A stretch of DNA of 13,138 nt, taken from positions 1-13,138 of the forward strand of contig JBQTGV010000101.1 in NCBI GenBank assembly GCA_052390515.1, given 5' to 3'. The DNA is from Candidatus Eiseniibacteriota bacterium (GTDB lineage: Bacteria; ARS69). Position numbers and translations under genes: made by a program. Below are positions 1 through 13,138 of this stretch, one piece after another (position 1 is the stretch's first letter; the number at the start of each line of letters is the position of its first letter). The notes beneath the pieces are model-generated. The model saw only the letters and a program-made list of their open reading frames with translations. It did not search any database and was not told where the DNA came from.

Positions 1-87
1 CCGATCATCCCCCTTCGCCCTCCGCCGCCGCGGGGCCGCCGCGGTCGTTCCGGAGGGCAGGCTATCGGAGCCCCTCAAGGGATCATA

Positions 88-136
88 TTTTCCGGAAAAG
101 GTGGGGTCAGAGTTTCCGGAACTCACACGTGTGAGT
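88..136. repeat. cluster of short palindromes and a direct repeat at the toxin truncation point
   Basis: TTTTCCGGAAAA (88-99) is a perfect 12-bp palindrome. TTTCCGGAA occurs at 89-97 and 113-121. ACTCACACGTGTGAGT (121-136) is a perfect 16-bp palindrome. Confidence 0.6.
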
Positions 137-304
137 CGCCGTATCAAGCGGCTGCGAGGGATGCGGCAGCCCCAGTATCGCCTTCGTGTGGGCGAGATGC
201 GAGTTTTCTATGACGTCACGGAGACCGAAGTTCAGGTCCTCGCCATCGTCTCGAAGGATGAGGTCCGGGCGTGGCTCGAGCAGGAGGGCCAGCCGGAGGC
301 GTAG
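101..304 (+). pseudogene. RelE/ParE-family type II toxin, probably 5'-truncated (C-terminal ~60 aa)
   Basis: RIKRLRGMRQPQYRLRVGEMRVFYDV...VQVLAIV is a typical RelE C-terminal motif, and the gene lies directly upstream of a Phd-type antitoxin. The frame is open to the window edge, but sequence upstream of ~119 does not resemble a RelE N-terminus. Confidence 0.7.
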
Positions 305-305
305 C

Positions 306-542
306 GTGGCGCTGGCCGAGGTGAAGGACGACCTGTCACGGTATCTGCGGATGGCCGAGCAAGAGGAGATCCTGATCACCCGCCACGGCAAGCCGGCCGG
401 CGTTCTGATCGGGTTTTCCTCGGAGGAGGACTGGCTGGAGTATCGTTTGGAGAACCATCCTGAGTTCCTGGATCGGATTGCGCGCGCGCGCGTGGATCAT
501 CGTGAAGGTCGAGGTGTGAAGCTGGAGGACCTTCCGGAGTGA
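306..542 (+). CDS. Phd/YefM-family antitoxin
   Basis: VALAEVKDDLSRYLRMAEQEEILITRHGKPAGVLI matches the Phd/YefM N-terminal DNA-binding motif. GTG at 306 has GGAGG at 295-299 and follows the toxin stop at 304. Confidence 0.85.
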   Translation: MALAEVKDDLSRYLRMAEQEEILITRHGKPAGVLIGFSSEEDWLEYRLENHPEFLDRIARARVDHREGRGVKLEDLPE

Positions 543-544
543 CG

Positions 545-603
545 GGCTAACAGCGGCATGGAGCGGACGCGCTTCGCGCCGCCGCTGATGCCGAGCGTTA
601 GGA
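545..603 (+). mobile_element. attC: integron attC site (59-base element)
   Basis: R'' GGCTAAC 545-551, 5-bp spacer, L'' CATGGAGC 557-564, central palindrome, L' GCTGATG 584-590, 6-bp spacer, R' GTTAGGA 597-603. It is 59 bp long, begins 2 bp after a stop codon and ends 5 bp before the next ATG. Confidence 0.88.
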
Positions 604-608
604 CGCAT

Positions 609-1370
609 ATGACATCTATCGCAATACTTGGTGCGACCGGCAACTTGGGGCGACACGTCGCAAAACAGGCCCTCGCTCACGGTTGGGAGCTCTCGGTCGC
701 TGTCCGCAATCGTGGACGGCTTGCCCCTGATGTCGCCTCGAGCGCGCATGTAACCGATCTAGATCTCACCATGGCGACGACCGAGCAGCTTGCCTCCTTC
801 GCTGCCGGTCACGATGTCTTCGTATCGTGCGCTGGAGTTGTGACGGAAGGCGAGGCGTTCGTTCGCCTAGTGGACGGAGTTGTCACGGCGCTGGAGTCAC
901 TCCAGCCCGACAAGCGCCCAGTGTGCTGGTTTCTCGCCGGTGCGGCGCTCTTGCCGCTGGATGCAACGGGAAGGATGGGCGTGGATCTTCCCAAAGTGAG
1001 CGACACATACTGGCCCCACCGGAAGAATTACGAGCGACTGCAGCGCTCTAGCCTCGACTGGCGTCTCCTGTGCCCTGGGCCAATGGTCGAGGAACCTGCC
1101 ATTGGCTTGCAGCGGCTTCGTGTGTCTATTGACAGCTTGCCTGCTTCGCTACCAGCAATCGCTCGATCCCTGCCTTCCCTTCTGGTGCTTCCCTTGTTCG
1201 CAATGAAGATCCCGGAAATGATCATTCCATATGCCGACGCGGCTTCAGTGATCCTCGCGAATGTGGAAGCGCATGGCTCGACTACAAGGCACAGAGTCGG
1301 CGTGGCTTTGCCTATCGGCATGAAAGGCAAGAAGCAGGTATGGTCAGCCCAGCCGCGAAGTGCGCCTTGA
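609..1370 (+). CDS. NAD(P)H-binding Rossmann-fold protein (NAD-dependent epimerase/flavin reductase-like), integron gene cassette
   Basis: N-terminal IAILGATGNLG (GxxGxxG), plus FLAGAALL and SSLDWRLLCP motifs. ATG 609 lies right after attC R', where AGGA (600-603) can act as RBS. Codon third positions are visibly more A/T-rich than in the genes beyond 2.9 kb. Confidence 0.85.
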   Translation: MTSIAILGATGNLGRHVAKQALAHGWELSVAVRNRGRLAPDVASSAHVTDLDLTMATTEQLASFAAGHDVFVSCAGVVTEGEAFVRLVDGVVTALESLQPDKRPVCWFLAGAALLPLDATGRMGVDLPKVSDTYWPHRKNYERLQRSSLDWRLLCPGPMVEEPAIGLQRLRVSIDSLPASLPAIARSLPSLLVLPLFAMKIPEMIIPYADAASVILANVEAHGSTTRHRVGVALPIGMKGKKQVWSAQPRSAP

Positions 1371-1421
1371 CAGCATACAGCTGACCGCGCTCCGCGCCGC
1401 CGCTGATGCTGGGCGTCAGGC
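1364..1421 (+). mobile_element. attC: degenerate attC site
   Basis: CAGCATACAGCTGACCGCGCTCCGCGCCGCCGCTGATGCTGGGCGTCAGGC shares CGCGCCGCCGCTGATGC with the first attC and keeps paired CAGCAT/ATGCTG arms. The R boxes are altered: GCCTTGAC and GTCAGGC instead of RYYYAAC and GTTRRRY. Confidence 0.7.
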
Positions 1422-1455
1422 AGGACGAGCACCTTACAAGCAGTAGGACAAGGGC

Positions 1456-1560
1456 ATGATCCACTGCTACCGTGAGGGTGACGAGGTGATTCGAATCATC
1501 TCCGCTCGGAAGGCGACTCGGGCGGAGCGGGAGCAGTACAGCCGTAGGTGGATGAGATGA
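1456..1560 (+). pseudogene. brnT: BrnT-family toxin, C-terminal fragment only (34 codons)
   Basis: Translates as MIHCYREGDEVIRIISARKATRAEREQYSRRWMR*, and IRIISARKAT is the BrnT signature. An in-frame TAG at 1444-1446 means the N-terminal part is missing. The stop overlaps the antitoxin start (ATGA 1557-1560). Not in the supplied ORF track. Confidence 0.8.
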
Positions 1561-1775
1561 AGAAGGAGTACGACTTCTCGAAGGCGAGACGGAATCCCTA
1601 TGCGGGCCGGCTCAAGCGGCAAGTGACCATCCGCCTGGACAACGGGACGATCGGCTATTTCAAGGAGCTGGCGGACGAGACGGGCATTCCCTATCAGACG
1701 CTGATCAACCTGTACTTGAGGGAGTGTGCGGCGAGCCGCAAGAAGCTCTCGATGAACTGGAGGCCCGTCGCTTAA
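1557..1775 (+). CDS. brnA: BrnA-family antitoxin (ribbon-helix-helix)
   Basis: MKKEYDFSKARRNPY...KRQVTIRLD...YFK...GIPYQTLINLYLR is a characteristic BrnA/CopG-like sequence. It is coupled to the BrnT remnant by an ATGA overlap. Confidence 0.88.
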   Translation: MKKEYDFSKARRNPYAGRLKRQVTIRLDNGTIGYFKELADETGIPYQTLINLYLRECAASRKKLSMNWRPVA

Positions 1776-1824
1776 CGTCGGCCGGCGGCCAAACACGTAT
1801 GAGGCCCCCGGTGGTCAATAGGTA

Positions 1825-2261
1825 GTTGTTCCCCTCCGTCCGCCTGGTCGGCGTCACCGCTGGGGATCGGCTGGTCGTCCCGACTTCGTTTCCCACGGGT
1901 GCAGACGGTCCACCCTGCACCAAACACGTATCGAGGGTCGCGGCCCGGCGTCGCCGGTCCGAGCGGAGCAGGTTCACTCCGCAGCCCTAGAACTCATGGG
2001 TGCCCTCGTTCCGGCTCACTCACGACGGACGGGCTGAGCGCGCTGCTCTCCAGTTGGTCTCGAGCTCGGCGAGGGGCAGGACATCTCGCGTCGATCCGAA
2101 TCTTTGGGGAGCGGGACGGTCGTCCGTTCAAACGGTGCAGGATCCCTGGGCTTCGCTCCGGCAATCACCGGGGTCTTCGCCCCAGACGCTTCCTCTCGGT
2201 TGCCACACGAGCTTCTCCGTCAGCGGGTCCCAGTTAGACAAAGGGCTCGACCGTCCCCTCC
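1825..2261 (-). ncRNA. putative bridge/seek RNA of the IS1111-type element (three guide loops); boundaries approximate
   Basis: Inverted-repeat pairs at 2113-2122/2248-2257 (perfect 10 bp), 2001-2008/2070-2078 and 1898-1904/1915-1921. The internal 12-mer at 1920-1931 is identical to the element end/junction at 1789-1800. The motif CGAGC-N8/9-AACTGG occurs twice. Confidence 0.65.
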
Positions 2262-2262
2262 T

Positions 2263-2337
2263 TCACGAGGCCAGGAAGGCGTTCATGTCGAAGGCCTTCC
2301 TCCGCTTCAGCATGTGGAAGACGGCCCGTCCCAGCCG
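2263..2337 (-). pseudogene. IS110-family transposase C-terminal fragment
   Basis: RLGRAVFHMLKRRKAFDMNAFLAS* resembles the (H/R)KL(G/A)RAVYxML-type C-terminal helix of IS110 transposases. The stop is TCA at 2263-2265 on the plus strand. Confidence 0.7.
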
Positions 2338-2801
2338 ACGCCGAGTTGATCGAGGAGCTGCGCCGCTTCGCGCGGGGCGAGGGGTTCGACGAGCAGCCCA
2401 TCCCGGGGCTCGACTCGGAAGGGCTCGACTTCCGAGCGGCTACCGAGTCGTTCGCGCCCGTCCGCGCGATCGCCCGCCGCGATCTGGAGACCCTGCGCCT
2501 CCTCACGGAACACCAGAGCCGCAAGGTGCCGACTGTGGGCGGGAGGATCCTCTTCGGGCGGGAGCGCGAGCGGCACTTCCCGGACGCATGGATCCAGGCG
2601 GGGCGCTTCGCGGGCGCCGACAAGAGCCACATCCTGGACCGCGCTGAGGTCCGCTCCATCCCTGCGCGCAGCGTAGAGGAAGCCGTCGCCTTCGTGCAGA
2701 AGCACGCCTGGCACGGCGCCGCGATCGGCGCGGTGCGCCGGAAGGACCGATGGAGCCTGCCCCCGGAGGCGGTGCGCGAGGCCGTCATCAACGCGGTGGC
2801 G
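2334..2801 (+). pseudogene. internal fragment of an AlbA_2 (Schlafen-like)/RecG-C-terminal (HATPase_c_4)-type putative regulator
   Basis: ADAELIEELRRFARGEGFDEQP...VPTVGGRILFG...FPDAWIQAGRFAG...LPPEAVREAVINAVA resembles this family. Similarity stops just before the His expected after REAxxNAxA, and the frame continues as antisense of the FG-GAP gene. There is no N-terminal AlbA domain. Confidence 0.72.
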
Positions 2802-2888
2802 CCGTCGCGTTCCACCACAGGTCCACCGCGCTCGCGCCGGTGCGCCGGCCGAAGACCGAAGGGGACATGCGTCGGGAAGCGGAGGTGG

Positions 2889-5800
2889 TCAGCGCAGGAG
2901 CACGAGCTTCTGCACCCGCGTCTCCCGACCCGCCTGCACCCGCAGGAAGTAGACGCCGGCCACCGGGACGCGGGACCCGCTTCGCGCGTCCCAGGTGAGG
3001 GGGTACGAACCGGGCTCGTAGACCTCGCCAGGGATCAGCTCCACCACCCGTCGCCCGGCGACGTCCACGACGTCCGCGTGGACGCGGGCGCGTTCGCCCA
3101 GGGTGAGCCGCAGCGCGAAGTTCCCCCAGGACGGGTTCGGGCCGGCGGGCACGAGCTCGATGCGTCCCGCGCCTCCGGGCGTCCCCACCACCGGCGCGGC
3201 CACGACCAGGACGCCGGCGGTGCGCAGGTGCGCCTCGTTGTGGCCGTTGATCGTCCCCTGCGTCCAGGGACCCCGGCTCTGAAATGGGGTCTTCGCCGGG
3301 TCGTACTTCGCGCGGACCCGCCAGTGGTACTGCATCCCGGAGGAGAGGCCGCTCACGAGCCGCTCCAGCTCGATCACGCCGTCCTGCCCGACGTCGAACC
3401 AGGGGCCGGTCACGGTGCCCTGCCCGTCGAAGGGAGTGCTCAACGGCTTCACCTCGTGCTCCATCTGCAGGCGGGTGCGGCCGTAGCCGGAGCTCAGGAT
3501 GGCGCGGATGCGAAACTCCGCTTCGCCGTCAGACCGGCCCAGCGGCGCGATCGGTGTCGTCCCGTCCGTTCGCAGCTGGCGCGCGTGCGTGGCGCGGCCG
3601 GCGCCGCCGTTCCCGTAGAACGCGAAGATGCGCCCCTCGTCGAGGTGTCCGTTGTCGAAGAGGCAGGCCGAGGCCACCACGTCGGAGAAGCCGTCGCCGT
3701 TCATGTCACCGGCAGCAGCCACGGAGACGCCGAAGGCCGCGCCGGCCTGCTGGCTTTCCGCGGTCCACGCCGCCGCCGGCGAGAGCCCCGTTTCCGAACC
3801 GAGGTAGACGAAGGCGCGCCCTTCGTCGGTCTCGCCGTTGTCGAAGAGGTACGCGCCGACGATGACGTCGGAGAAGCCGTCGCCGCTCACGTCTCCGGCC
3901 GTGGCCACGCAGGAGCCGAAGTAGGCGGCGTCCTGATCGCCCTCCGCGGACCACGCGGCGGTCGGCGAGAGTCCCGTGGGCGAGCCGTGGTAGACGAACG
4001 CCGCTCCCTCGCTGCCCTGTCCGTTGTCGTAGAGGTACGCGCCGGCGATGACGTCGGAGAAGCCGTCGCCGTTGACGTCGCCCGCCGTGCTCACCGAGAG
4101 GCCGAGTCGGTCGCCGATCTGCACGCCGTCCGCGGTCCATGCGGCCACCGGAGACAGCCCCGCCGGCGATCCGTGGTACACGAAGGCGCGTCCCTGGTCG
4201 GCGAGGTCGTCGTCGTACAGGAAGCTCCCGACGATGACGTCCGAGAAGCCGTCGCGGTTCACGTCCCCCGCGGTCGCGACGCAGACTCCGAACTCCGCGC
4301 CGGCCTGGTCGCTCTCCGCGGTCCATGCGGGGGCCACCGAGAGTCCCGCCGCCGAGCCGTGGTAGACCCAGGCGCGCCCTTCGCTGGTCTGTCCGTTGTC
4401 GTAGAGCCGGCTCCCGACGATGACATCGGCGAAGCCGTCGCCGTTGACGTCTCCCGCGCCCGCCACGACTCCGAACTCCGCGGCGGCTTGGTCACTCTCC
4501 GCGGTCCAGGCTGGCGTCGTCGACAGGCCGCCGGCCGATCCGAGGTACAGGAAGGCGCGCCCCTCGTCGGTCTGACCGTTGTCGTAGAGGTAGGCGCCGA
4601 CGATGACGTCGGCGAAACCGTCGCCGTTCACGTCGCCCGCACCCGCGACCGAGGAGCCGAAGCGCGCGCCGGCCTGATCGCCTTCGGCGCTCCACGCGGG
4701 TGTGGTGGACAGCCCCGTGGCCGACCCGTGGTAGATGAACGCCCGCCCCTCCAGGCTCTGCCCGTTGTCGTACTGGAAGGCGCCGACGATGACGTCGGCG
4801 AACCCGTCGCCGTTCACGTCGCCGGCGCTCGCCGCCGAGCGGCCGAGCTGCGAGGCGGGCTCGTCGCTCTCCACCGCCCAGACGGCCGCCGCCGTCGGCC
4901 CCGAGGGCGTTCCGAGGTACAGGAAGGTCCGTCCCTCGTCGGGTTGGGCGTCATCGAGCCGTGGGCTCCCGACGAGGACATCGGAGAAGCCGTCGCCGTT
5001 CACGTCTCCCGCCGGCGCGACGCAGTGGCCGAACTCGGCGTAATCCTGCGCACCGTCCACGAACCAGACCGGGCTCGGCACGAGCCCCGCAGCGGATCCG
5101 TGGTAGAGGTAGGCACGTCCTCTCGTTATCAGGCTCGAGTCATAGTAGTTGTAGGCTCCCACGAGCACGTCGGCGTAACCGTCGCCGTTCACGTCCCCCG
5201 CGGTCGCGACCGAGGCGGCAAACAGGGAGAACGCGAGGTTGGACTCGAGGGCCACGGCGGGAAGGGCGGCGAGCCCCGCCGGCGAGCCATGGTAGACGAA
5301 GGTCAATCCCTCGTTGGTCTGCCCGTTGTTGAAGGCGGGCGCGCCGACGAGGATGTCCGAGCATCCGTCACCGTTCACGTCGCCGGCAGTCGCCACCGAT
5401 TGCCCGAGGCCGGCGTAGTCCTGTCCGCCCTCCACGCTCCAGGCGGAGGAGAAGGCGAGTCCGACGGCGGAGCCGTGGTAGACGAGCGCCAGTCCCTCGT
5501 TGACGTTGCCGTTGTCGAGGCCGTGCGCGCCGACGATAACGTCGGCGTAGCCATCCCCGTTGACGTCCCCCGCGGTCGCCACCGACCAGCCGAGGTAGGC
5601 GTTCGCCTGGTTTCCCTCCGTCGTCCAGGAGTGGAACACGCTGAGCCCCGACGCCGAGCCGTGGTAGACGTACGCCAGACCCTCGTCGAGCTCGCCGTTG
5701 TCGGTGTAGGGCGCGCCGACGATCACGTCGGAGTACCCGTCACCGTTCACGTCTCCCGCCGTCGCCACCGAGGCTCCGAAGCGGCTGTCGCTCTGGTGGC

Positions 5801-6413
5801 CGTTCATCACCCACGCCGGGATGGTGGAGAGCCCGGCCGGCGAGCCGTGGTAAACGAACGCGCGCCCCTCGTCGGTCAGATCGGCGTCGTAGTACGAAGC
5901 GCCGACGATCACGTCGGAGTAGCCGTCGCCGTTCACGTCTCCGGCTGTCGCCGCGCAAGAGCCGAAGAAGGCCTGGTGCTGGTTGCCCTCCCCGGTCCAT
6001 GCGGGCGTCGTGGACAGCCCCGCGGCCGAGCCGTGGTACACGAAGGCCGCCCCTTCCTCGAAGGCGCTGTTGCTCCAAGCCGGGGCCGCCACGATGACGT
6101 CGGAGTAGCCGTCTCCGTTCACGTCACCCGCCGTCGTCACGGAGGCGCCGAACAGGGCGCCGTACAGGTCGCCGTCCGCGGTCCACGCGGGCGTCGTCCC
6201 GGCGCCCGAGACGGTGCCGCTGGCTCCGCCGCGAGCAAGCTGCTCGGCCACCACGCGCCACCAGTCCTCGTCGGCGCCGGCGGCGAGAACGGCGGGGTCC
6301 GGCTCAGGGGCCGTGGAGGCCGCGAAGGCCGGGTCGGCAGCGTTTGCCGGGCGGGCCGGCCCAGCCGGGGCGAACACGAGGAGGAGCGTGCAGAGCGATG
6401 GAGCGGCGTTCAT
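2889..6413 (-). CDS. secreted FG-GAP (integrin-alpha-like beta-propeller) repeat protein with C-terminal FlgD-Ig/T9SS-like sorting domain, ~1174 aa
   Basis: Signal-peptide-like N-terminus (MNAAPSLCTLLLVFAPAGPA) with a GGGAGG RBS upstream of ATG 6413. There are 14 AGD(V/M)(N/S)(G/R)DG-x-x-D repeats. The C-terminus reads PNP...DVAGRRV...WD...AGVYFLRV...KLVLLR. Confidence 0.9.
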   Translation of the reverse strand: MNAAPSLCTLLLVFAPAGPARPANAADPAFAASTAPEPDPAVLAAGADEDWWRVVAEQLARGGASGTVSGAGTTPAWTADGDLYGALFGASVTTAGDVNGDGYSDVIVAAPAWSNSAFEEGAAFVYHGSAAGLSTTPAWTGEGNQHQAFFGSCAATAGDVNGDGYSDVIVGASYYDADLTDEGRAFVYHGSPAGLSTIPAWVMNGHQSDSRFGASVATAGDVNGDGYSDVIVGAPYTDNGELDEGLAYVYHGSASGLSVFHSWTTEGNQANAYLGWSVATAGDVNGDGYADVIVGAHGLDNGNVNEGLALVYHGSAVGLAFSSAWSVEGGQDYAGLGQSVATAGDVNGDGCSDILVGAPAFNNGQTNEGLTFVYHGSPAGLAALPAVALESNLAFSLFAASVATAGDVNGDGYADVLVGAYNYYDSSLITRGRAYLYHGSAAGLVPSPVWFVDGAQDYAEFGHCVAPAGDVNGDGFSDVLVGSPRLDDAQPDEGRTFLYLGTPSGPTAAAVWAVESDEPASQLGRSAASAGDVNGDGFADVIVGAFQYDNGQSLEGRAFIYHGSATGLSTTPAWSAEGDQAGARFGSSVAGAGDVNGDGFADVIVGAYLYDNGQTDEGRAFLYLGSAGGLSTTPAWTAESDQAAAEFGVVAGAGDVNGDGFADVIVGSRLYDNGQTSEGRAWVYHGSAAGLSVAPAWTAESDQAGAEFGVCVATAGDVNRDGFSDVIVGSFLYDDDLADQGRAFVYHGSPAGLSPVAAWTADGVQIGDRLGLSVSTAGDVNGDGFSDVIAGAYLYDNGQGSEGAAFVYHGSPTGLSPTAAWSAEGDQDAAYFGSCVATAGDVSGDGFSDVIVGAYLFDNGETDEGRAFVYLGSETGLSPAAAWTAESQQAGAAFGVSVAAAGDMNGDGFSDVVASACLFDNGHLDEGRIFAFYGNGGAGRATHARQLRTDGTTPIAPLGRSDGEAEFRIRAILSSGYGRTRLQMEHEVKPLSTPFDGQGTVTGPWFDVGQDGVIELERLVSGLSSGMQYHWRVRAKYDPAKTPFQSRGPWTQGTINGHNEAHLRTAGVLVVAAPVVGTPGGAGRIELVPAGPNPSWGNFALRLTLGERARVHADVVDVAGRRVVELIPGEVYEPGSYPLTWDARSGSRVPVAGVYFLRVQAGRETRVQKLVLLR

Positions 6414-6525
6414 GGGCGAGCCTCCCGTCGATTGGAGTGGTCGCCCGCACATGCGACGCCCAGCGGCGAATGGTGCCACTCACCTCCGGATCACGACCCG
6501 GCTCGGTCGGGTCTCGCCTCACGCA

Positions 6526-7095
6526 TCAGCCGGCGGCGGATTCCCCCAACGCGCCGAAGAGCCAGGCCCGCGCGAAGGTCCAGTCGCGCTTCACGGTGCG
6601 CGCGGTGACGCCGAGCACGTCGGCGACCTCGTCGACGCTCAGGCCGGCGTAGAAGCGGAGGCGGACCACGGTCGCGCCGCGCTCGTCCACCGTGTGCAGC
6701 CGCTGCAGCGCGCCATCCAGCGCCAGGATCTGGTCCAGGTCGTAGTCCACGGCGAGGTCGGCGGCCGCCAGGTCCGAGAGGGACACCTTCTCCCGAGGCC
6801 GCCCCTCGATGCCGCCGCGCTTCTCCCGGCCGCGGGCTCGCGCCCGTTCGATCAGGATCCGGCGCATCGCCTCGGCGGCCGCGGCGAAGAACTGCGCGCG
6901 GCTCGCCCACAACTTGGGTCCCTCGCCGGCCAGGCGCAGGTAGGCCTCGTGCACGAGCTCGGTGGAGCGGAGGGTCCCGCCGGCGCGCTCGCTGCGGAGC
7001 CGCGCGTGGGCCAGCTCGCGGAGCTGGGCGTACAGGGCGCCGAGCATCTCGGAAGTCGGCTCGGCGGGATCGGGGGCGTCGGGCTGGTCGGTCAC
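6526..7095 (-). CDS. ECF-type RNA polymerase sigma factor, Ser/Thr-kinase-associated type (TIGR02999/ECF43-like)
   Basis: LYAQLRELA...TLRSTELVHEAYLRL...FFAAAAEAMRRILIERAR (sigma2) and VVRLRFYAGLSVDEVADVLGVTARTVKRDWTFARAWL (sigma4). The start is taken as GTG 7095 (or 7098); the longer ORF-track start overlaps the kinase. Confidence 0.9.
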   Translation of the reverse strand: MTDQPDAPDPAEPTSEMLGALYAQLRELAHARLRSERAGGTLRSTELVHEAYLRLAGEGPKLWASRAQFFAAAAEAMRRILIERARARGREKRGGIEGRPREKVSLSDLAAADLAVDYDLDQILALDGALQRLHTVDERGATVVRLRFYAGLSVDEVADVLGVTARTVKRDWTFARAWLFGALGESAAG

Positions 7096-7101
7096 CACCC
7101 G

Positions 7102-7110
7102 ATCGTAGCA
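7102..7110 (-). promoter_or_regulatory. possible extended -10 element (TGCTACGAT) for a leaderless sigma factor mRNA
   Basis: TGnTACGAT lies 6 nt upstream of GTG 7095, and no clear Shine-Dalgarno sequence is present. Confidence 0.35.
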
Positions 7111-7126
7111 CGCGGTTTCACGCGGC

Positions 7127-9946
7127 TCACTGCCGGGCGAGGCTGTCGATCTGCGCGTGGAACGCCGCGGCCTGCTCCGGCCGGCCGAGCGCCTCGAGAA
7201 CCTCGGCGGCACTACGGAGCGCCGTGCGCTTGCTTCCTTTGGCGAAGGCGGCATCGGCCATCAACGGCTCCACGCTGTCCACGAGCAGCGTTTCCGCCGC
7301 CGCCGCGTCGCCCGCTCGGAGGATGCACTGCCCGAGCAAGTTCCGGCTCCACGCCAGCAGCACGGGATTCGGGTCGGTCGCCTGGCGCTGGCCGGCCAGG
7401 CACGTCTCCATCAGCTCCCGCGCCCCCCCGGTCTCCCCGCGCGCCAGCAGCACCGTGGCGAGAAACTGGCTGAACCGCGCGACGTCCGGGTGCGACGGAC
7501 CCAGCAGCTTCCGGTTGGTCTCCAGCGCGCGTCGCTCCAGATCCGCGGCCTCCTCCAGCCGGGAGACCCGGTACATGAGCCCGGCGAGCAGGTGCTGCAC
7601 CAGGGCGACCTCGGTGTGCTCTTCGCCGTACAGCCGGACGCGGATCGCCAGCGCCTCGCGGTAGAGGCGCTCGGCGTCCTCGAACCGGTCCTGCTTGAAG
7701 TAGAGGGCGCCGAGGTTGCCGAGGGACGCGGCCACGTCGGGATGCTCGTCGCCGAGGACCTTCCGCTGGATGGCCAGGCTCTCGAGGTAGAGCGGCTCGG
7801 CCTCGTCGTATCGCCCGAGGGACTTCACCAGTACGGCGAGGTTGTTCAGTCCGGTGGCGAGCGCGGGGTGGCTGTCGCCGAGGACGCGCCTTTCCAGCGC
7901 GATCGTCGCACGGTAGAGAGACTCGGCCTCGGCGTATTTCCGCTGGTTCTTCAGCACGTGAGCGAGGTTGGACATGCCCATCAGGACCGAGGGATGATCG
8001 TCGCCCGAGGCGGCGCGATGGATGGCGAGCGCCTCGCGCTGTGCGGCCTCCGCTTCCGCCAGGCGTCCCTGGGAGCGCAGCGCCTCGAACAACGTGAACA
8101 GCGCACCGGCGTACCGCGGGTCGGCGGCGCCGACGCTGTCCCGGTAGAGCTCGACGGACTCCCGCGCCAGCCGCTCCGATTCCTCGTACTTGCCGAGCGC
8201 ATGCTGCACGTTCGAGGAGAGGCCGAGATTGTACGCTGCCTCCTCCGCGTGCGAGGCCCGCTTCGGCCGCAGGATGGCGGCGGCCTCGTCCAGCACGACC
8301 TGCGCGGTGTCGGCGCGTCCGGCATCCAGCAGCACGTCGCCGAGCGCATCGAGCGCGGCGGCCCGCTCGACGCTGCCGCGTCCATGACGAGCGGCCGCCA
8401 CTTCGGCGCGCTCCCGAGCCAACGGAAGCGCCTCCGCCGGAAGCCCGAGGCCGTCGTAGGCCTGCGCGAGCGTGCCGAGCACCGCGGCCTGCACGTCCGG
8501 CTCACCGGCGAGCTCGGTGGAAACGCGCGCCGCCGCGCGGTCCAGGATGTCGCGCGCCAGCACCTGCTCGCCGCGCGCGCTGGCCGGATCGGAAGCGGAG
8601 AGCATCTCCTGGAGGAACGTGTTGATGTGCTCGGCCTTGAGCCGCTCGACACGCTGGCGGTGGTACATCACGGTCATGCCGAAGGCGAAGACGATCAGCG
8701 CGACGACGAGAGCACCCGCGAGCGCTGCCACGCCCCGGTGTCGTGCGACGAGCTTCTGGATCTGGTACGCGGTGCTCGGAGACCGGGCGAGAATCGGCTG
8801 ACTCGCCAGGTGGCGCTCCACGTCCTCGGCGAGCGTCGCGGCGCTGGAGTACCGCCGCGCGGGGTCCTTCTCCAGCGCCTTCAGCGTGATCCACTCGAGA
8901 TCGCCGCGCAGCCGCCGCGCGAGGGACTGCGGTTCCGTCCGGCGCATCGCCGCGATGGCGGCGGCCGACGCCCCGAGGGAAGAGAGCCGGGTCGTGAGGC
9001 GGGGAGGCTCGGTGTCGCGGATGAGCTGCAGGAGCTCGAGCAGTCCGCCTCCCGGCGTCTCGCGGCGGTCGAACGGCAAGTCGCCGACCAGCAGCTCGTA
9101 CAGGATCACCCCCAGCGAGTAGACGTCGCCGCGCGTGTCCACGCCGGCCGGGGAGGCCGAGGCCTGCTCCGGGCTCATGTACTCGGGAGTGCCGACGACG
9201 ACGCCCGCCTGAGTGTGCAGCGTCTCCTGCGTGAGGCGCGCCCCGAGCGCCTTCGCCACGCCGAAGTCGATCACCTTGACGAGCGGCTTCTCGCCCGCAC
9301 GCGTCACCAGCACGTTGGACGGCTTGAGATCGCGGTGGATCACGCCCTTCTGATGTGCGTGCTGGACCGCCTCGCACAGCTGCAGGAAGAGGCGCAGGCG
9401 ATCGTCGAGCCCGAGCCGCTCCGCGTCGGCGAACTTCGTGATGGGCAGACCCGCGACGTGCTCCATGACGAAGTACGGATCGCCGCCGGGCGTGACCCCG
9501 GCATCGTGCACCACCGCGATGTTGGGGTGGTCCATGAGGGCGAGCACCTGCCGCTCCGCCTCGAAGCGGGCCAGGACCTCGCTCGAGCCCGCGCCGGCGC
9601 GGAGGAGCTTCAACGCGACGTTGCGCCGGATGGGCTGGCGCTGCTCCGCCAGCCAGACCGTGCCGAACCCGCCCTCGCCGAGCCGCTCGAGAAGCGTGTA
9701 CGGACCGATCTCGCGGCCCACCCCGCCGGGGCCGGCCGAGGGCGGCGCCGGAACGGCGGCAGCATCCGCCGAAGGGAGGAACGATCCCGCCGCGTCGTGC
9801 TGTCCGAGGAGCTGCTCGATGCGGGAACGCAGCTCGGGCTCCCCTCCGCACTCGCGGTCGAGCAGGTCCCCTCGGGCGCCGGGCGGGAGCTCCGCGGCGC
9901 GCTCCAGGATGCTCTTGAGGCGGTCGAGGGGGTTGCCTGGGCTCAT
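7127..9946 (-). CDS. Hanks-type Ser/Thr protein kinase with transmembrane helix and C-terminal TPR repeats, ~939 aa
   Basis: Kinase motifs GEGGFG, VALK, HRDLKPSN, DFG, GTPEYMSPE and DVYSLG are all present. TM segment VAALAGALVVALIVFAFGMTVMY. TPR repeats of the LGxxHPxxAxxLNNLA...YxEAExLY type. Likely start ATG 9946 (MSPGNPLDRLK). Confidence 0.93.
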   Translation of the reverse strand: MSPGNPLDRLKSILERAAELPPGARGDLLDRECGGEPELRSRIEQLLGQHDAAGSFLPSADAAAVPAPPSAGPGGVGREIGPYTLLERLGEGGFGTVWLAEQRQPIRRNVALKLLRAGAGSSEVLARFEAERQVLALMDHPNIAVVHDAGVTPGGDPYFVMEHVAGLPITKFADAERLGLDDRLRLFLQLCEAVQHAHQKGVIHRDLKPSNVLVTRAGEKPLVKVIDFGVAKALGARLTQETLHTQAGVVVGTPEYMSPEQASASPAGVDTRGDVYSLGVILYELLVGDLPFDRRETPGGGLLELLQLIRDTEPPRLTTRLSSLGASAAAIAAMRRTEPQSLARRLRGDLEWITLKALEKDPARRYSSAATLAEDVERHLASQPILARSPSTAYQIQKLVARHRGVAALAGALVVALIVFAFGMTVMYHRQRVERLKAEHINTFLQEMLSASDPASARGEQVLARDILDRAAARVSTELAGEPDVQAAVLGTLAQAYDGLGLPAEALPLARERAEVAAARHGRGSVERAAALDALGDVLLDAGRADTAQVVLDEAAAILRPKRASHAEEAAYNLGLSSNVQHALGKYEESERLARESVELYRDSVGAADPRYAGALFTLFEALRSQGRLAEAEAAQREALAIHRAASGDDHPSVLMGMSNLAHVLKNQRKYAEAESLYRATIALERRVLGDSHPALATGLNNLAVLVKSLGRYDEAEPLYLESLAIQRKVLGDEHPDVAASLGNLGALYFKQDRFEDAERLYREALAIRVRLYGEEHTEVALVQHLLAGLMYRVSRLEEAADLERRALETNRKLLGPSHPDVARFSQFLATVLLARGETGGARELMETCLAGQRQATDPNPVLLAWSRNLLGQCILRAGDAAAAETLLVDSVEPLMADAAFAKGSKRTALRSAAEVLEALGRPEQAAAFHAQIDSLARQ

Positions 9947-10152
9947 CGGGAGTTCGTCCGGCCGGGGGAGATTCGATCCTAGCTCATGGGCGAACCGGCC
10001 GGTACCGGCTGCCGCCGCCTCTCCCACCGGCGAATCCGCCTGCCGGCCGCGCCTCTCCCGCGGTGACGGTTTTCCCCCGCGGTCCACGCAATGGCAGGGG
10101 AGCGGCCACCGCCGGGGCATCGGGCCCCCGCCGGCCGCAAGGAGGCGGCATC

Positions 10153-10461
10153 ATGCAGATCGAGAGGAGCCCCATGCTCCGCTTGGACAAGGCCATGGTC
10201 CTCGGCTACCTCAAGTCCGCGGGATCGAGCGATCCGGACGTCCTTCACACGCAGAAGAAGAACCTGCTCTCGCTCGCCCAGTTCCCGAAGTTCGTCGGCA
10301 CCTACCTGATGGTGATGGGCGGGCTGTGCACGGTCATGATCCTCACCGCGGTGATCGGGATCCCGCTCCTCTTCTTCGGTTGGTGGATGCGCAAGCGCGG
10401 CGTGGCCAACATCAAGGTGGTGGAGGCCGGCTGGAAGGAGTTCTCCGGCGCGACCGCCTGA
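10153..10461 (+). CDS. small hypothetical membrane protein (102 aa, hydrophobic hairpin)
   Basis: GGAGG at 10141-10145 precedes ATG 10153, and codon usage is host-like. It has the hydrophobic stretch FVGTYLMVMGGLCTVMILTAVIGIPLLFFGWW. Confidence 0.75.
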   Translation: MQIERSPMLRLDKAMVLGYLKSAGSSDPDVLHTQKKNLLSLAQFPKFVGTYLMVMGGLCTVMILTAVIGIPLLFFGWWMRKRGVANIKVVEAGWKEFSGATA

Positions 10462-10549
10462 GCGGCGGACGAAGCACCGATACGTCCTGGCTCGGGGACG
10501 GTCCGGCCGGTACCATGCCGGCGGCGGTGGATCCCGAACAGGAGCGGAC

Positions 10550-11251
10550 ATGAAGCTGAACGACTGCATCGCCCTCGTCACCGGGGGCAGCGCCGGCATC
10601 GGGCTGGAGACGGCGCGGCTGCTGAAGGCGAACGGCGCGAAGGTGGCCATCTGCGGCCGCACGCAGGACCGCGTAGAGAGCGCTGCGAAGGAGATCGCCG
10701 CGCTGCCGCTCGTCGGAGACGTGGGCCGCGAGGCGGACGCGGTCCGGATGGTGGAAGCCGTCGTCGGCGAGTTCGGCGACTACAACACGCTCATCAACAA
10801 CGCCGGCTGGGGGCGCTTCGCCCCGCTGCTCGACCTCGAGCTCGACGAGTTCAAGGCGGTGATGGACACGAACGTCTTCGGCGCGATGCTCATGGCGCGC
10901 GAGTCGGCACGCCACTTCGTGGCGAAGAAGCGCGGCAACATCGTCAACGTCTCGTCGACGGCCGGCGGGCGCGGCTTCGCTGGCGGCACGGCCTACGTCG
11001 CGACGAAGTTCGCGCTCGGCGGCATGACCGAGTGCTGGCGCGCGGAGCTGCGCAAGCACGAGATCCGCGTCATGCAGATCAACCCCAGCGAGGTGCAGAC
11101 CGAGTTCGGGTCCTCGCAGGGGCGGGTCCGCAAGCTCAGCGAGAAGAAGCTGCGAAGCGAGGAGATCGCCCACGCGATCCTGGCCATGCTGACCATGGAC
11201 GACCGCGGCTTCACCACCGAGCTGACCGTCTTCGCCACGAATCCGGACTAG
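10550..11251 (+). CDS. short-chain dehydrogenase/reductase (SDR) family oxidoreductase
   Basis: TGGSAGIG, NNAG, NVSS and catalytic YVATK motifs. AGGAG RBS upstream. Confidence 0.93.
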   Translation: MKLNDCIALVTGGSAGIGLETARLLKANGAKVAICGRTQDRVESAAKEIAALPLVGDVGREADAVRMVEAVVGEFGDYNTLINNAGWGRFAPLLDLELDEFKAVMDTNVFGAMLMARESARHFVAKKRGNIVNVSSTAGGRGFAGGTAYVATKFALGGMTECWRAELRKHEIRVMQINPSEVQTEFGSSQGRVRKLSEKKLRSEEIAHAILAMLTMDDRGFTTELTVFATNPD

Positions 11252-11423
11252 CGCCCGGTCACGGTAACTTCGCCCGACCCCGGAGAAACGACCGGCCCGG
11301 GCGGTGGACGGCGTCGTCCCCGGCGCGCCGGCCGGACTCTTCAAGCCCCGGCCCCACCGTCGATTCCGCGGCCTCGAGCGCCGCCCGGGGCGCGTGGCAT
11401 GCTCCGTGCAGACTCCGCCGGGC

Positions 11424-12701
11424 ATGACACGCTTCCTACCCTGGCTCGCCTTGCCGCTCGCGCTCATCGCCCCCCTGCCGGGATCGGCCGGCGGGAACTG
11501 CTCGGGCACTTCCGTCGGCCTTGCCCCGATCGACGAGCTGGCCGCGCCGTACCTCCTGACCGCCGCCGGCGGGCTGTATCCCGGCGGCGCGAACACGAAG
11601 CCGCCGGCGCACGAGGCAGACGGCCTCGCCGAAGCGGCGCACGTCGTTCCGCTCGATCAGGCCGGGAATCCGGATCCCGTGTCCGGGAAGATCGTGATCC
11701 TCACCGTCGGGTTCTCCAACACCTCGCACGAGTCCGCCGTGCTCGTGTCGCTGAGCAACGCCGACCCGCTGCGCCACCCTGCCGTGCGCGTGGTGAACGG
11801 AGCCCACGGCTCCGCGTCGGCCGAGGTCGTCCAGGATCCGGCGAACAAGTACTGGCCGTGGCTGCTCGCGACGCTCTCGCAACACGGGTACTCGCCGCTC
11901 CAGGTGCAGGCAATCTGGTACAAGCAAGCGACCGCTTCGCCGACCGCGCCCTTCCCGCTCCATGCTCTCGCGCTGCGCCAATACAACGTGAAGATCATGG
12001 GGATCCTGCGATCGCACTTCCCCAACGCGCGGCTGTGCTACGTGTCCAGCCGCATCTACGCAGGCTACTCGGTGACCACGGTGAACCCGGAGCCGTTCGC
12101 GTACGAGTCGGCGTTCGCGTACAAGTGGATGATCGGCGACCAGATCCGCGGCGTGCCGGAGCTCAACTTCGATCCGCAGCGGGGTGCTGTGACGTCGCCG
12201 TGGATCGCGTGGGGACCGTACCTCTGGGCGGACGGCACGCGGCCCCGCTCCGACGGCCTGGTCTGGCGCTGTCAGGACTTCGTCACCGACGGCACGCATC
12301 CTTCCCCGTCGGGAACGGCGAAGGTCGCCGCGCTGCTCCTGTCCTTCTTCCAGACGGACGCGACCACGCGCGGCTGGTACCTCGCCAACCCGACCACGGG
12401 AGTCAGCGTGCTCCCACCCGAATCCGACTGGGTCGTGCTCTCGCCGCGGCCCAATCCGTTCCGTACCCAGCTCGTGATCCCCGTGCAGTTGGACCGGGCC
12501 GGCACCGTGGCCGCGTCGGTTTACTCCATCGCCGGCCGGCGCGTGCGCACTCTTCCGCCCGCGGTGCTCGGTCCGGGCCTGCACGAGCTGACCTGGGACG
12601 GACGCGATGAGCTCGGGCGCGGAGTCGCCGCAGGCATCTACTGGATCCGCATCGAGGACGGCGGCTCCGCGCATACCCTCCAGGCGACCCTGATTCGCTG
12701 A
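11424..12701 (+). CDS. secreted protein with putative SGNH/GDSL-like hydrolase domain and C-terminal FlgD-Ig/T9SS-like sorting domain
   Basis: Signal peptide MTRFLPWLALPLALIAPLPGSAG. TVGFSNT, NGAHG and DGTHP resemble SGNH blocks I, II and V. The tail reads PRPNPF...YSIAGRRVRTL...TWDGRDELGRGVAAGIYWIRI. Confidence 0.75.
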   Translation: MTRFLPWLALPLALIAPLPGSAGGNCSGTSVGLAPIDELAAPYLLTAAGGLYPGGANTKPPAHEADGLAEAAHVVPLDQAGNPDPVSGKIVILTVGFSNTSHESAVLVSLSNADPLRHPAVRVVNGAHGSASAEVVQDPANKYWPWLLATLSQHGYSPLQVQAIWYKQATASPTAPFPLHALALRQYNVKIMGILRSHFPNARLCYVSSRIYAGYSVTTVNPEPFAYESAFAYKWMIGDQIRGVPELNFDPQRGAVTSPWIAWGPYLWADGTRPRSDGLVWRCQDFVTDGTHPSPSGTAKVAALLLSFFQTDATTRGWYLANPTTGVSVLPPESDWVVLSPRPNPFRTQLVIPVQLDRAGTVAASVYSIAGRRVRTLPPAVLGPGLHELTWDGRDELGRGVAAGIYWIRIEDGGSAHTLQATLIR

Positions 12702-12717
12702 CAAAGGAGAAAGTCCG

Positions 12718-13138
12718 ATGACTCCATCGAAAGCATGGTGGGCAGTTCTGGCAGTCGTTCCCGTCGGCCTCGTTTCGGCCCTCGTCATCGACGGGGGAGA
12801 AGGGCGGCGGGAAGTGATCCTGCCCGCGGGCACCTCGATCGTCGCGGCGCTCCAGGGCGAAGTGTCCACGGCGCGGAGCCGGCCGGGAGAGGGCGTCGAG
12901 CTCCGCAGCGTGCGGCCGCTGCCCGTGGAGGGCGAAGCTCCTATTCCCGCGGGCGCCATCATCCGCGGCCAGGTCACCGAGGCGGAGGGCGGCGGACGCA
13001 TGGGCGGTGCGCCGGAGCTCGGTCTGTCGTTCCGGGAGCTCGAGATCGACGGCGAGCGCTATCCCATCCAGGCGAACATCTATTACCTGAAGGGCAAGGG
13101 CGACACCATGGAGACGGTCGCGGAGATCGGCGGCGGAG
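12718..13138 (+). CDS. membrane-anchored TrbI/VirB10-like domain protein, partial (runs off window end)
   Basis: AAAGGAGA RBS, then ATG 12718. Translates as MTPSKAWWAVLAVVPVGLVSALVI...ILPAGTSIVAALQGEVST...IPAGAIIRGQVTEAEGGGRMGGAPELGLSF..., open to the window end. Absent from the ORF track because it has no stop. Confidence 0.7.
   Translation, partial: MTPSKAWWAVLAVVPVGLVSALVIDGGEGRREVILPAGTSIVAALQGEVSTARSRPGEGVELRSVRPLPVEGEAPIPAGAIIRGQVTEAEGGGRMGGAPELGLSFRELEIDGERYPIQANIYYLKGKGDTMETVAEIGGG

Follow-up and report, generated by a model that had tools for sequence, protein, structure and literature searches.

Bridge and seek RNAs, of which that of the insertion sequence (IS) IS621 is ~177 nt long, underlie a new class of programmable recombinases and have so far been described as bispecific, with one target loop and one donor loop. 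Within the IS110 family, the IS1111 group is set apart by a short left end, a long 3′ non-coding end, subterminal repeats and a transposase of ~347 residues, as described by Siddiquee et al. 2024 (PMC11187229) and Durrant et al. 2024 (PMC11208160). IS1111 elements are reported to encode their guide RNA 3′ of the transposase gene, with the top-strand match lying 5′ of the bottom-strand match (PMC11187229), and in the wording of Durrant et al. (PMC11208160) the donor-binding nucleotides lie 'in a multi-loop' 'In many IS1111 orthologues'. We analysed a 13,138-nt stretch of a Candidatus Eiseniibacteriota genome (assembly GCA_052390515.1, contig JBQTGV010000101.1, positions 1 to 13,138; hereafter the window), in which positions 1792–2337 of the minus strand very probably represent a 5′-truncated, non-autonomous IS110-family insertion sequence of the IS1111 type that ends in a bridge/seek-type guide RNA. 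This is a new member of the IS1111 group that, as far as can be told, would work like the ISEc11-type seekRNAs and the predicted IS1111 bridge RNAs of Durrant et al., departing from them in size and in a conserved third module.

The likeness to the seekRNAs of ISEc11, ISPa11, ISKpn4 and ISPst6, as these are described in Siddiquee et al. 2024 (PMC11187229), extends to the location of the RNA in a long 3′ non-coding region, the subterminal repeats, a transposase of ~340–350 aa, and top- and bottom-strand target segments that overlap at the insertion point. Published seekRNAs are given as 82–96 nt (short) or 151–172 nt (long) (PMC11187229; Table 1 of PMC13604230), compared to ~380 nt here. Unlike the ISEc11-type seekRNAs, the present predicted RNA places a second target-type loop between the first loop and the donor strands. 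With IS621 and the IS1111 bridge RNAs predicted in PMC11208160 it shares separate target and donor parts, a core in each guide, a donor multiloop, and repeats that flank the donor; IS621, as described there, has two internal loops encoded 5′ of the gene, whereas here two target-type loops and a multiloop lie 3′ of it. A full-text literature search returned no published description of a duplicated target loop or a three-module architecture, although the figures and supplements of Durrant et al. 2024 and Siddiquee et al. 2024 lay outside that search and may show one.

Two parts of the element are kept: the last 24 transposase codons (RLGRAVFHMLKRRKAFDMNAFLAS; 2266–2337, minus strand, with the stop codon at 2263–2265) and the whole 3′ non-coding end, which spans 471 nt between that stop codon and the right end at ~1792. 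An earlier interpretation made from the letters alone (the sequence-only reading) had located 1825–2261 within ~470 bp 3′ of an IS110/IS1111 transposase stub, and both the distance and the identity of the stub are borne out. Specifically, 22 of the 24 stub residues are identical to residues 324–347 of the best full-length match, the 347-aa IS110 transposase P0002 (E 7e-13), which itself passes the NCBIfam model NF033542, 'IS110 family RNA-guided transposase', with 184.5 bits against a cut-off of 140. Among metagenomic copies L009 is the closest, with 85% DNA identity along 556 nt, and similarity to it begins at 2337; L009 lengthens the stub frame to a 43-aa C-terminus with matches to 221 of 229 candidate proteins at E ≤ 0.01, those of full length having 347 aa with PF01548 and PF02371. 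The stub frame alone (58 aa, 24 of them genuine) had no match in Pfam. The DEDD/RuvC-like and PF02371 domains are seen only in P0002 and its genomic relatives (58–62% identical, NF033542 passed), the window contributing 24 C-terminal residues. By eye, P0002 shows ..HESSGKR.. where the S/T-G motif is expected, and the relatives, at 347–349 aa, lie within the 330–350 aa typical of the group.

A search of 401 sampled genomes with P0002 identified seven with relatives at E ≤ 1e-40, several of which are complete genes of 347–349 aa and 47–62% identity to P0002. An nhmmer profile of the window family matched the 3′ ends at 7 of 11 relatives' loci (E 4e-28 to 2e-13), and the 3′ non-coding end is also carried on plasmids of Ca. 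Manganitrophus (E 1e-51), Alteromonas (7e-10; Alteromonas macleodii) and Vibrio campbellii (5e-5); Pseudoalteromonas, Catenovulum and a second Alteromonas type display the same layout by eye. The three-module architecture described below recurs in several phyla, and in all 14 full-length or deleted copies examined the non-coding region follows an IS110 transposase gene in the same orientation. Searching the window DNA in the genomes of 60 relatives gave only a 25-nt match at chance level, exact 19- and 20-mers of the element were absent from the species genome collection (0 and 0), and viral contigs scanned with P0002 and with alignment A4 held no relative. Five metagenome loci were found, and L011 and L012, which share only the 19–20-mer, were left out. 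The loci L015, L018 and L020 stayed outside the RNA alignments, having related transposases and no homologous non-coding end except for the last 35 nt of L020, and copies that keep only the 3′-most part (G304a, G304e, G067a, G067b, G067d and G409a) stayed outside the guide tables.

The limits of the element were read from these relatives. Their left ends have the form TTGAT-N7-8-AGGCCCCC, ~95–110 nt before the start codon, and their right ends the form TTGAC-N-GGGGGCCT-YATANGNG-TT, ~500 nt after the stop codon. The G/C blocks of the two ends are inverse complements, and the element therefore has subterminal inverted repeats; these are 9 bp long, with the left repeat GAGGCCCCC (the complement of GGGGGCCUC) positioned 8–11 nt inside the left end of full-length relatives and the right repeat GGGGGCCUC 8 nt from the element end. 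This length agrees with the 7–17 bp of IS1111 elements, the left repeat being read from relatives since the left end of the window copy is missing. The combination of a long non-coding end downstream of the transposase gene (471 nt in the window, ~500 nt in relatives) with a short left end (~100 nt) is likewise that of the group. Five copies in the complete genome G379 agree throughout the stretch that runs from GATC.. to ..GTGTT and diverge beyond it on either side, which places the crossover at TT (once GT), with a left junction of left flank-TT-GAT.. and a right junction of ..GTG-TT-right flank. A boundary model with TTGAT and GTGTT as the target was rejected, given that the same five copies are identical over GATC..GTGTT while their flanks differ. 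The pattern TTGAC-N-GGRGRCCTYATA occurred 12 times in four of five genomes and not once in the reversed control.

Comparison among relatives indicates that the 3′ non-coding end is a conserved structured RNA. In a 15-sequence alignment, a nine-helix model paired 82.4% of cells versus 35–47% in slid controls, with a covariation score of 0.351 versus ~0.10 and double changes at 27 of 44 pairs; a 19-sequence alignment with seven helices gave 83.3% versus 35–48%, 0.381 versus at most 0.153, and 23 of 36 pairs, respectively. None of 500 column shuffles of either alignment reached the observed cells paired, double changes or covariation score, while the number of further pair types in the 15-sequence alignment was not exceptional (reached by 462 of 500 shuffles). 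The layout consists of module A, a linker, and then a domain closed by helix H1 that contains module B, helix H5 with two hairpins, an inner hairpin, and the single strands J1, J2 and J3, together forming a structured core of ~380 nt within the 471-nt end.

The best helix of all is stem A (2248–2257 pairing with 2113–2122; minus strand, as for all features of the RNA), in which 10/10 pairs form in the window and compensatory changes affect 9/10 pairs in the 15-sequence and 10/10 in the 19-sequence alignment, such that its sequence differs per lineage yet stays complementary. Helix H1 (2077–2081 with 1878–1882) encloses loop B and the donor multiloop, and has 4/5 compensatory pairs with 84% of cells paired in the smaller alignment and 2/5 with 62% in the larger. 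Module B (2004–2074) comprises helices 2071–2074/2004–2007, 2068–2069/2011–2012 and 2061–2064/2015–2018 around a loop with a 5′ strand (2049–2060, ..CCAACUGGA), a hairpin (2036–2048) and a 3′ strand (2019–2035, ..CCGUCGUGAG). Its core CCUC/GAGG, formed by the first of these helices, has 2/4 compensatory pairs with 92% paired (15 sequences) and 1/4 with 67% (19 sequences); both H1 and this core score lower in the larger alignment because the alignment is shifted there. The helix 2061–2064/2015–2018 has 3/4 compensatory pairs, with 98% and 91% paired in the two alignments. Helix H5 (1985–1988/1934–1937; 2/4 compensatory, 93% paired) delimits a region, 1934–1988, with the variable hairpins 1963–1982 and 1939–1961, which RNAalifold predicts with compensatory changes. 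Finally, the inner hairpin GGUGCAG/CUGCACC (1898–1921; 1915–1921 pairing with 1898–1904) has 3/7 and 4/7 compensatory pairs, with 75% and 90% paired in the 15- and 19-sequence alignments. A competing RNAalifold pairing, GCAC/GUGC (2000–2003/1917–1920), was rejected, as it shows no compensatory changes and breaks in G379 exactly where the inner hairpin is compensated.

The sequence-only reading had drawn the region as three stem-closed internal loops, and the conservation and covariation of stems among the 19 relatives support it in part. Its module A stem (2113–2122/2248–2257) and its inner hairpin stand as drawn. Of its module B stem (2001–2008/2070–2078), the core CCUC/GAGG is retained, whereas the remainder lacks support, and loop B is closed by two helices that it did not contain (2068–2069/2011–2012 and 2061–2064/2015–2018) around the variable hairpin. 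The proposed closing stem of module C (1881–1888/1932–1940) has to be abandoned: only CGAC/GUCG (1937–1940/1881–1884) can pair, with 80% of cells paired and 0/4 compensatory pairs, and because its arms are claimed by the covarying H5 and H1 this region is a multiloop. What survives of the stem-closed donor loop is that one region reads the donor end, by strands of the multiloop rather than by an internal loop.

To relate the loops to insertion sites, loop strands were taken by alignment position and flanks by end motifs, and each element's own junctions were compared with the junctions of other lineages. The 3′ strand of loop A (2123–2139; UGCACCGUUU-GAACGGA) is likely the left-target guide, with the core UU at 2130–2131 followed by GAA; in relatives this strand equals left flank + TT + GAT. 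It agrees with its own left flank at 3.00/8 positions versus 1.77/8 across lineages (p = 0.0024, n = 12), in an offset scan its match is best at the left junction itself (offset 0, z = 4.6), and the match reaches 9 nt in L017 and G409b. In addition, this strand occurs in G379 both as GCGAUUGAU and as GUAUUUGAU, and either allele adjoins left flanks that it fits better. The 5′ strand (2228–2247) contains GUCUAAC (2233–2239), complementary to G-TT-AGAC of right junctions and likely the right-target guide plus core; for its reverse complement, GTTAGAC, the scan has its maximum at the right junction (z = 6.0), and the right flank of the copy on contig C120, GTTAGAC, fits it at 7/7 positions. Judged by these matches, loop A is the loop that binds the target, and its segments follow the IS1111 order, in which the one matching the top strand precedes the one matching the bottom strand. 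The target-matching segments characteristic of seekRNAs are thus found in loop A on the evidence of the relatives, the window copy keeping the right flank only.

The right junctions of the copies often read GTTAGGC or GTTAGAC, and the loop A 3′ strand of L010 (L010:1-475) reads CGGCUUGAA. The right flank GTTAGGC and this L010 strand resemble integron attC sequences, a likeness from which no claim is made. Both strings, the GTTAGGC type and CGGCUUGAA, occur in the attC target of ISKpn4 given in Table 1 of PMC13604230.

The donor part appears to reside in the multiloop. Strand J2 (CGAUACGUGUUU; 1922–1933) is a copy of the right end plus core (AUACGUG-UU), for which reason it is taken as the donor part; it is identical to the right junction (1790–1801) over 12 nt in the window, and in 12 of 15 relatives' copies 6–8 of 8 positions are identical. 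At the variable position of AUA-N-G, J2 and the right end have the same base in nine of ten lineages, and all four bases are represented: C in this family, G in five lineages, A in G096 and Manganitrophus, and T in Vibrio and Alteromonas. J2 is therefore not only the carrier of nucleotides matching the element's own ends, a further seekRNA trait, it is also likely, from these comparisons, the left-donor guide in the multiloop. Strand J1 (GCACCCAUGAGUUCU; 1989–2003) bears the conserved GAGUUUCUAGG motif, from which the window copy lacks one U; in L017 the 7-nt AUAUUAU of J1 matches the bottom strand of that element's own left end. The matches of J1 are partial and lineage-specific, and it is possibly the right-donor guide. 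Strand J3 (CGUGGGAAACGAAGU), together with the 3′ arm of H1 (1878–1882), covers 1878–1897 and is highly conserved, its TGGGAAACGAAGTCGGGAC being identical in all five copies of this genome and near-invariant in relatives. In G379, the region from H5 to J2 exists in two quite different versions, one in L037, L038 and L040 (copies G379b, c and e) and the other in L036 and L039 (G379a and d); the only full-length G379 copy (e) has the version whose J2 fits the right end poorly.

These features suggest a mechanism in which the 3′ end would encode a long bridge/seek-type guide RNA, with a structured core of ~380 nt and 471 nt to the element end, that may be expressed and form a complex with the recombinase, like the RNAs of ISEc11 or IS621. 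The 10-bp stem of module A would close an internal loop whose 5′ strand (..GUCUAAC..) is predicted to pair with the top strand of core plus right target, and whose 3′ strand (..NNNN-UU-GA..) is identical to left target plus core, the order being that of IS1111 elements. The H1-closed domain would hold the multiloop, in which J2 repeats the right end plus core (AUACGUG-UU) as the donor-binding part, and module B would form a second internal loop in that domain, built like A. TT would serve as the core, and GA(U/A) and C beside it could act as handshake bases; the core-adjacent bases of the other partner (C after AA, GAU after UU, and UGG after the UU of J2) may fit this idea, handshake guides having been described by Hiraizumi et al. 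(PMC11208158). Among the aligned relatives, the comparisons show homology, structure, covariation between loop A and the left flank, and covariation between J2 and the right end. Since the H1-closed domain does not include module A, the latter could conceivably also form an RNA of its own, reminiscent of CazIS110-1 (Sun et al. 2025, bioRxiv 10.1101/2025.10.25.684509), for which a target-loop (TBL-only) RNA acting beside the complete bridge RNA is reported; the TBL-only RNA described there is a truncated form of one loop, whereas here there are two distinct tandem loops.

Several observations weigh against a guide RNA of this kind. The window sequence by itself folds no better than its shuffles (z = +0.92, with 85 of 100 shuffles equalling it), so that the case for a structured RNA is a comparative one, and Rfam gave no match over the window at the gathering score and only a chance-level lncRNA match (E 2.6) at E ≤ 10. 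The 5′ strand of loop A agrees with its own right flank hardly better than across lineages (3.15/7 versus 3.04/7, p = 0.13, n = 13); right flanks, mostly TT-AG.., are so uniform that this strand does not tell lineages apart. Over all eight positions, J2 agrees equally with its own right end and with those of other lineages (5.47 versus 5.47, p = 0.27), and the evidence for J2 consists of one covarying position plus high identity; these and all other permutation tests include four copies from one genome, which makes their p-values optimistic. Furthermore, the G379/G409/G067 clade has G in J2 where the end has A, G379b and G379e (the latter being the full-length copy) carry a different J2 region, and no guide for the left donor end (the right-donor guide) was identified among the loop strands. 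For the window copy itself, the right flank (GTTTGG) mismatches its own loop A 5′ strand at the first flank base, and neither a left end nor a transposase gene turned up in this assembly, so the donor and left-target readings are transferred from relatives.

Loop B is the part of the RNA that departs from the described systems. It is built like loop A, its 5′ side showing AACUGG and its 3′ side U/G-UGA; AAC.G and UGA.U are invariant in 15 of 15 sequences, and the module is conserved in all 19 aligned sequences, so the canonical layout of one target and one donor loop does not apply. Because the motifs are invariant and the helices covary, loop B is under selection. Its strands nevertheless do not follow the flanks: the 3′ strand agrees with its own left flank at 1.92/8 versus 1.77/8 across lineages (p = 0.23, n = 12), and the reverse complement of the 5′ strand with the right flank at 2.23/7 versus 2.33/7 (p = 0.75, n = 13). 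The expectation in the sequence-only reading that loops relate to insertion flanks is thus satisfied by the 3′ strand of loop A and not by loop B. As a donor loop, B was rejected, its 3′ strand matching the right end at 2.20 versus 1.89 of 8 (p = 0.03, weak) and its 5′ strand the left end at 0.90 versus 1.02 (p = 0.90). From its motifs and layout, loop B appears to be a paralogue of target loop A, with no partner identified among the flanks and ends compared. The formula 'one donor plus two target loops', as proposed from the sequence, is accordingly supported in that there are three guide-type modules, A and B having target-loop architecture, and not supported in that the B strands do not track flanks and the donor part is a multiloop; it is plausible in form and unproven in function.

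The account of loop B that survives best, though we hold it only tentatively, is that a duplicated target-type loop is kept as a scaffold without a guide role, for docking of a recombinase dimer or for folding or processing of the donor domain. This would reconcile the selected core motifs and covarying helices with the absence of flank tracking, and it suits the position of B in the H1-closed donor domain, where IS621-type RNAs, as described in PMC11208158, may offer a parallel in a protein-bound stem-loop. Natural single-loop derivatives also exist (G379c and probably L008), arising from deletion between the A and B motifs. In a pure scaffold, however, there is no need for the variable positions of B to change as fast between close copies as they do, nor for B to stay like A in the guide positions within lineages, and long B matches occur in G409b and Alteromonas.

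The derivatives L038 (G379c) and L008:2040-2410 are miniature forms in which the 5′ strand of loop A is fused to the 3′ strand of loop B. The hybrid loop apparently arose by deletion between two AACUGGA motifs, probably so in the case of L008.

That loop B is instead a working second target-binding loop, by which the RNA aims the element at two alternative sites or holds two target duplexes, seems to us unlikely, even though a range of observations favours it. In addition to sharing the motifs of A in 15/15 sequences and having covarying helices, B differs at its guide positions between close copies, as guides do (G304b/d, G379a/d), and the 3′ strands of A and B are closer within an element than across lineages (3.58 versus 2.81 of 8, p = 0.012), although this likeness may reflect gene conversion, as G379c shows recombination between two AACUGGAC motifs. 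An offset scan puts the best positions of B at the junction positions of A (z = 3.0 and 5.0), but these z-scores largely represent the shared core TT/GTT. The B 3′ strand of G409b fits the left junction along 10 nt, versus 9 nt for A, and an Alteromonas element has A and B nearly identical on both strands; among five further plasmid elements judged by eye the outcome was mixed, with B better in two, A better in two and Mang2 uncompared. Right flanks starting with GG are found in the two families with B 5′ CCAAC (the copy on C66 of this genome with L009, and G304b with G304e), a match of only 2 nt, picked post hoc, that a hand count places near chance (four seen, ~3 expected). Above all, B shows no preference for its own flanks (p = 0.23 and 0.75 as above), and its contiguous core-adjacent match is 0–1 nt in 11 of 12 elements. 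Finally, it is very improbable that the conserved stems act as DNA (recombinase-binding sites or cruciforms) or belong to an unrelated non-coding RNA, for although the element end carries DNA signals in its subterminal repeat and −35-like TTGAC, the G-U pairs and compensatory changes fit one strand, the loop strands copy junctions in the pattern reported for IS1111 seekRNAs (PMC11187229), and the region follows an IS110 transposase in the same orientation in the 14 copies examined.

Returning to the truncated IS1111-type element and its guide RNA, the 3′ tail and right end in the window (1792–1877, minus strand) comprise a −35-like hexamer TTGACC (1813–1818), the subterminal inverted repeat GGGGGCCUC (1801–1809), the donor end AUACGUG (1794–1800) and the core UU (1792–1793). 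The right target flank UGGCCGC (1785–1791, minus strand) lies directly after the stop of a BrnA-like gene on the opposite strand, and copies diverge from here. The stretch 1787–2337 is repeated at five further places in the assembly, all with the same right end, including C120:3569-4010 (87% identity, beginning at window position 2231), C66:13-267 at a contig start, C221:4157-3974 at a contig end, and C188:6867-6756, which holds only the last 113 nt; two extra remnants of ~22 and ~37 nt (C36:3679-3696 and C120:5065-5092) retain the right end alone. The 3′ boundary common to all genome copies is ..GGGGGCCTCATACG-N-G-TT, with divergence beyond it, while the 5′ boundaries all differ. The solo copies C120:3569-4010, C188:6756-6867, C120:5065-5092 and C36:3679-3696 form nested 5′ truncations with a fixed right end and no shared left boundary, for which recombinase-mediated deletions or repeated insertions at one end are candidate causes. 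A related situation is described for ISPpu9/ssr9 (Pares-Guillen et al. 2025, PMC12288879), where copies of a 3′ RNA module occur without the transposase gene, one with a 3′ stub of it; that element differs in belonging to the IS110 group, in the dispensability of Ssr9 for transposition, and in solo modules bounded by A′/B′ boxes rather than nested 5′ truncations, as set out there. A likeness to the right end (TTGAC..GGGGGGCCT..CATA) that could be chance or an old remnant is seen in a sigma-70-like promoter preceding a gene at G000:C118 ~11238-11275 (minus strand), where TTGACA and TATAGT are spaced by 17 nt.

Neither a PF01548 nor a PF02371 transposase gene was found in this assembly (0/5 and 0/34 candidates scored), although, with the assembly 95% complete in 223 contigs, absence from the genome is not established by this. 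A search for the left end in this genome via its repeat gave noise only, and nhmmer detected no further copies. The contigs of sequencing run X1 pile up toward the right end, with extra short contigs over 2247–2337; this is a hint of more copies in the sample, and only a hint because summed contig depth is not a copy number. In the window copy every helix pairs and the family residue is present at all invariant columns, while one U of the nearly invariant GUUUCU in J1 is missing. No promoter-like or terminator-like sites were found in 1650–3000. The missing U, the right-flank mismatch and the lack of a recombinase gene count against a fully functional copy, and the guide RNA called 'intact' in the sequence-only reading is so in having its whole 3′ end and not in these respects. 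Overall, the window locus is a dead-end remnant with a nearly whole guide RNA, which in this genome could act only if a full-length copy elsewhere supplies the recombinase.

Adjoining the right end directly is a BrnT/BrnA-like toxin–antitoxin pair (1324–1775, plus strand). The BrnA-like frame (1548–1775, plus strand) matches PF14384, whereas the match of the BrnT-like part to PF04365 is confined to the final 21 positions of that model and falls in another frame than the stretch before it; the toxin gene therefore looks broken. On the other side the element breakpoint lies at 2338–2345, where similarity ends upstream of 2337 and an unrelated frame on the opposite strand starts at 2346. This frame fragment (2346–2818, plus strand) abuts the truncated transposase stub and has no match in Pfam or NCBIfam; a different run from the same study contains contigs related to it. 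Beyond it, 2889–6479 (minus strand) encodes a 1196-aa repeat protein with a type IX secretion system (T9SS) C-terminal sorting domain (TIGR04183, just under the cut-off), transcribed toward the remnant.

Beyond this genome, the three-module 3′ end is present on plasmids of cultured marine bacteria, namely L060 (Vibrio campbellii ATCC BAA-1116), L062/L067 (Alteromonas macleodii), L064/L065 (Pseudoalteromonas) and L066 (Catenovulum), in elements annotated merely as 'IS110 family transposase'. In L066 the right end is tandemly duplicated, and in L065 the RNA region is interrupted by an IS3 element. As culturable marine bacteria (Alteromonas macleodii, Pseudoalteromonas and Catenovulum) carry the family on plasmids, the question of loop B is testable at the bench; no solved structure of an IS1111-type complex was found in the papers searched.

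For this genome, the repeat breaks the assembly at several contig ends. The clade with the three modules is seen in the candidate phylum of this genome, several other uncultured lineages, Nitrospirota and marine Gammaproteobacteria. That it represents IS1111-type elements with a tri-modular bridge RNA, in which two tandem, independently evolving target-binding loops accompany a donor multiloop, is doubtful on present evidence; if true, one recombinase–RNA complex could be aimed at two targets, or one loop could serve insertion and the other a second reaction such as direct transfer or excision. A conserved extra target-type loop in a natural RNA would either show how a third specificity can be added to these RNAs, or point to something that IS1111-type complexes require structurally.

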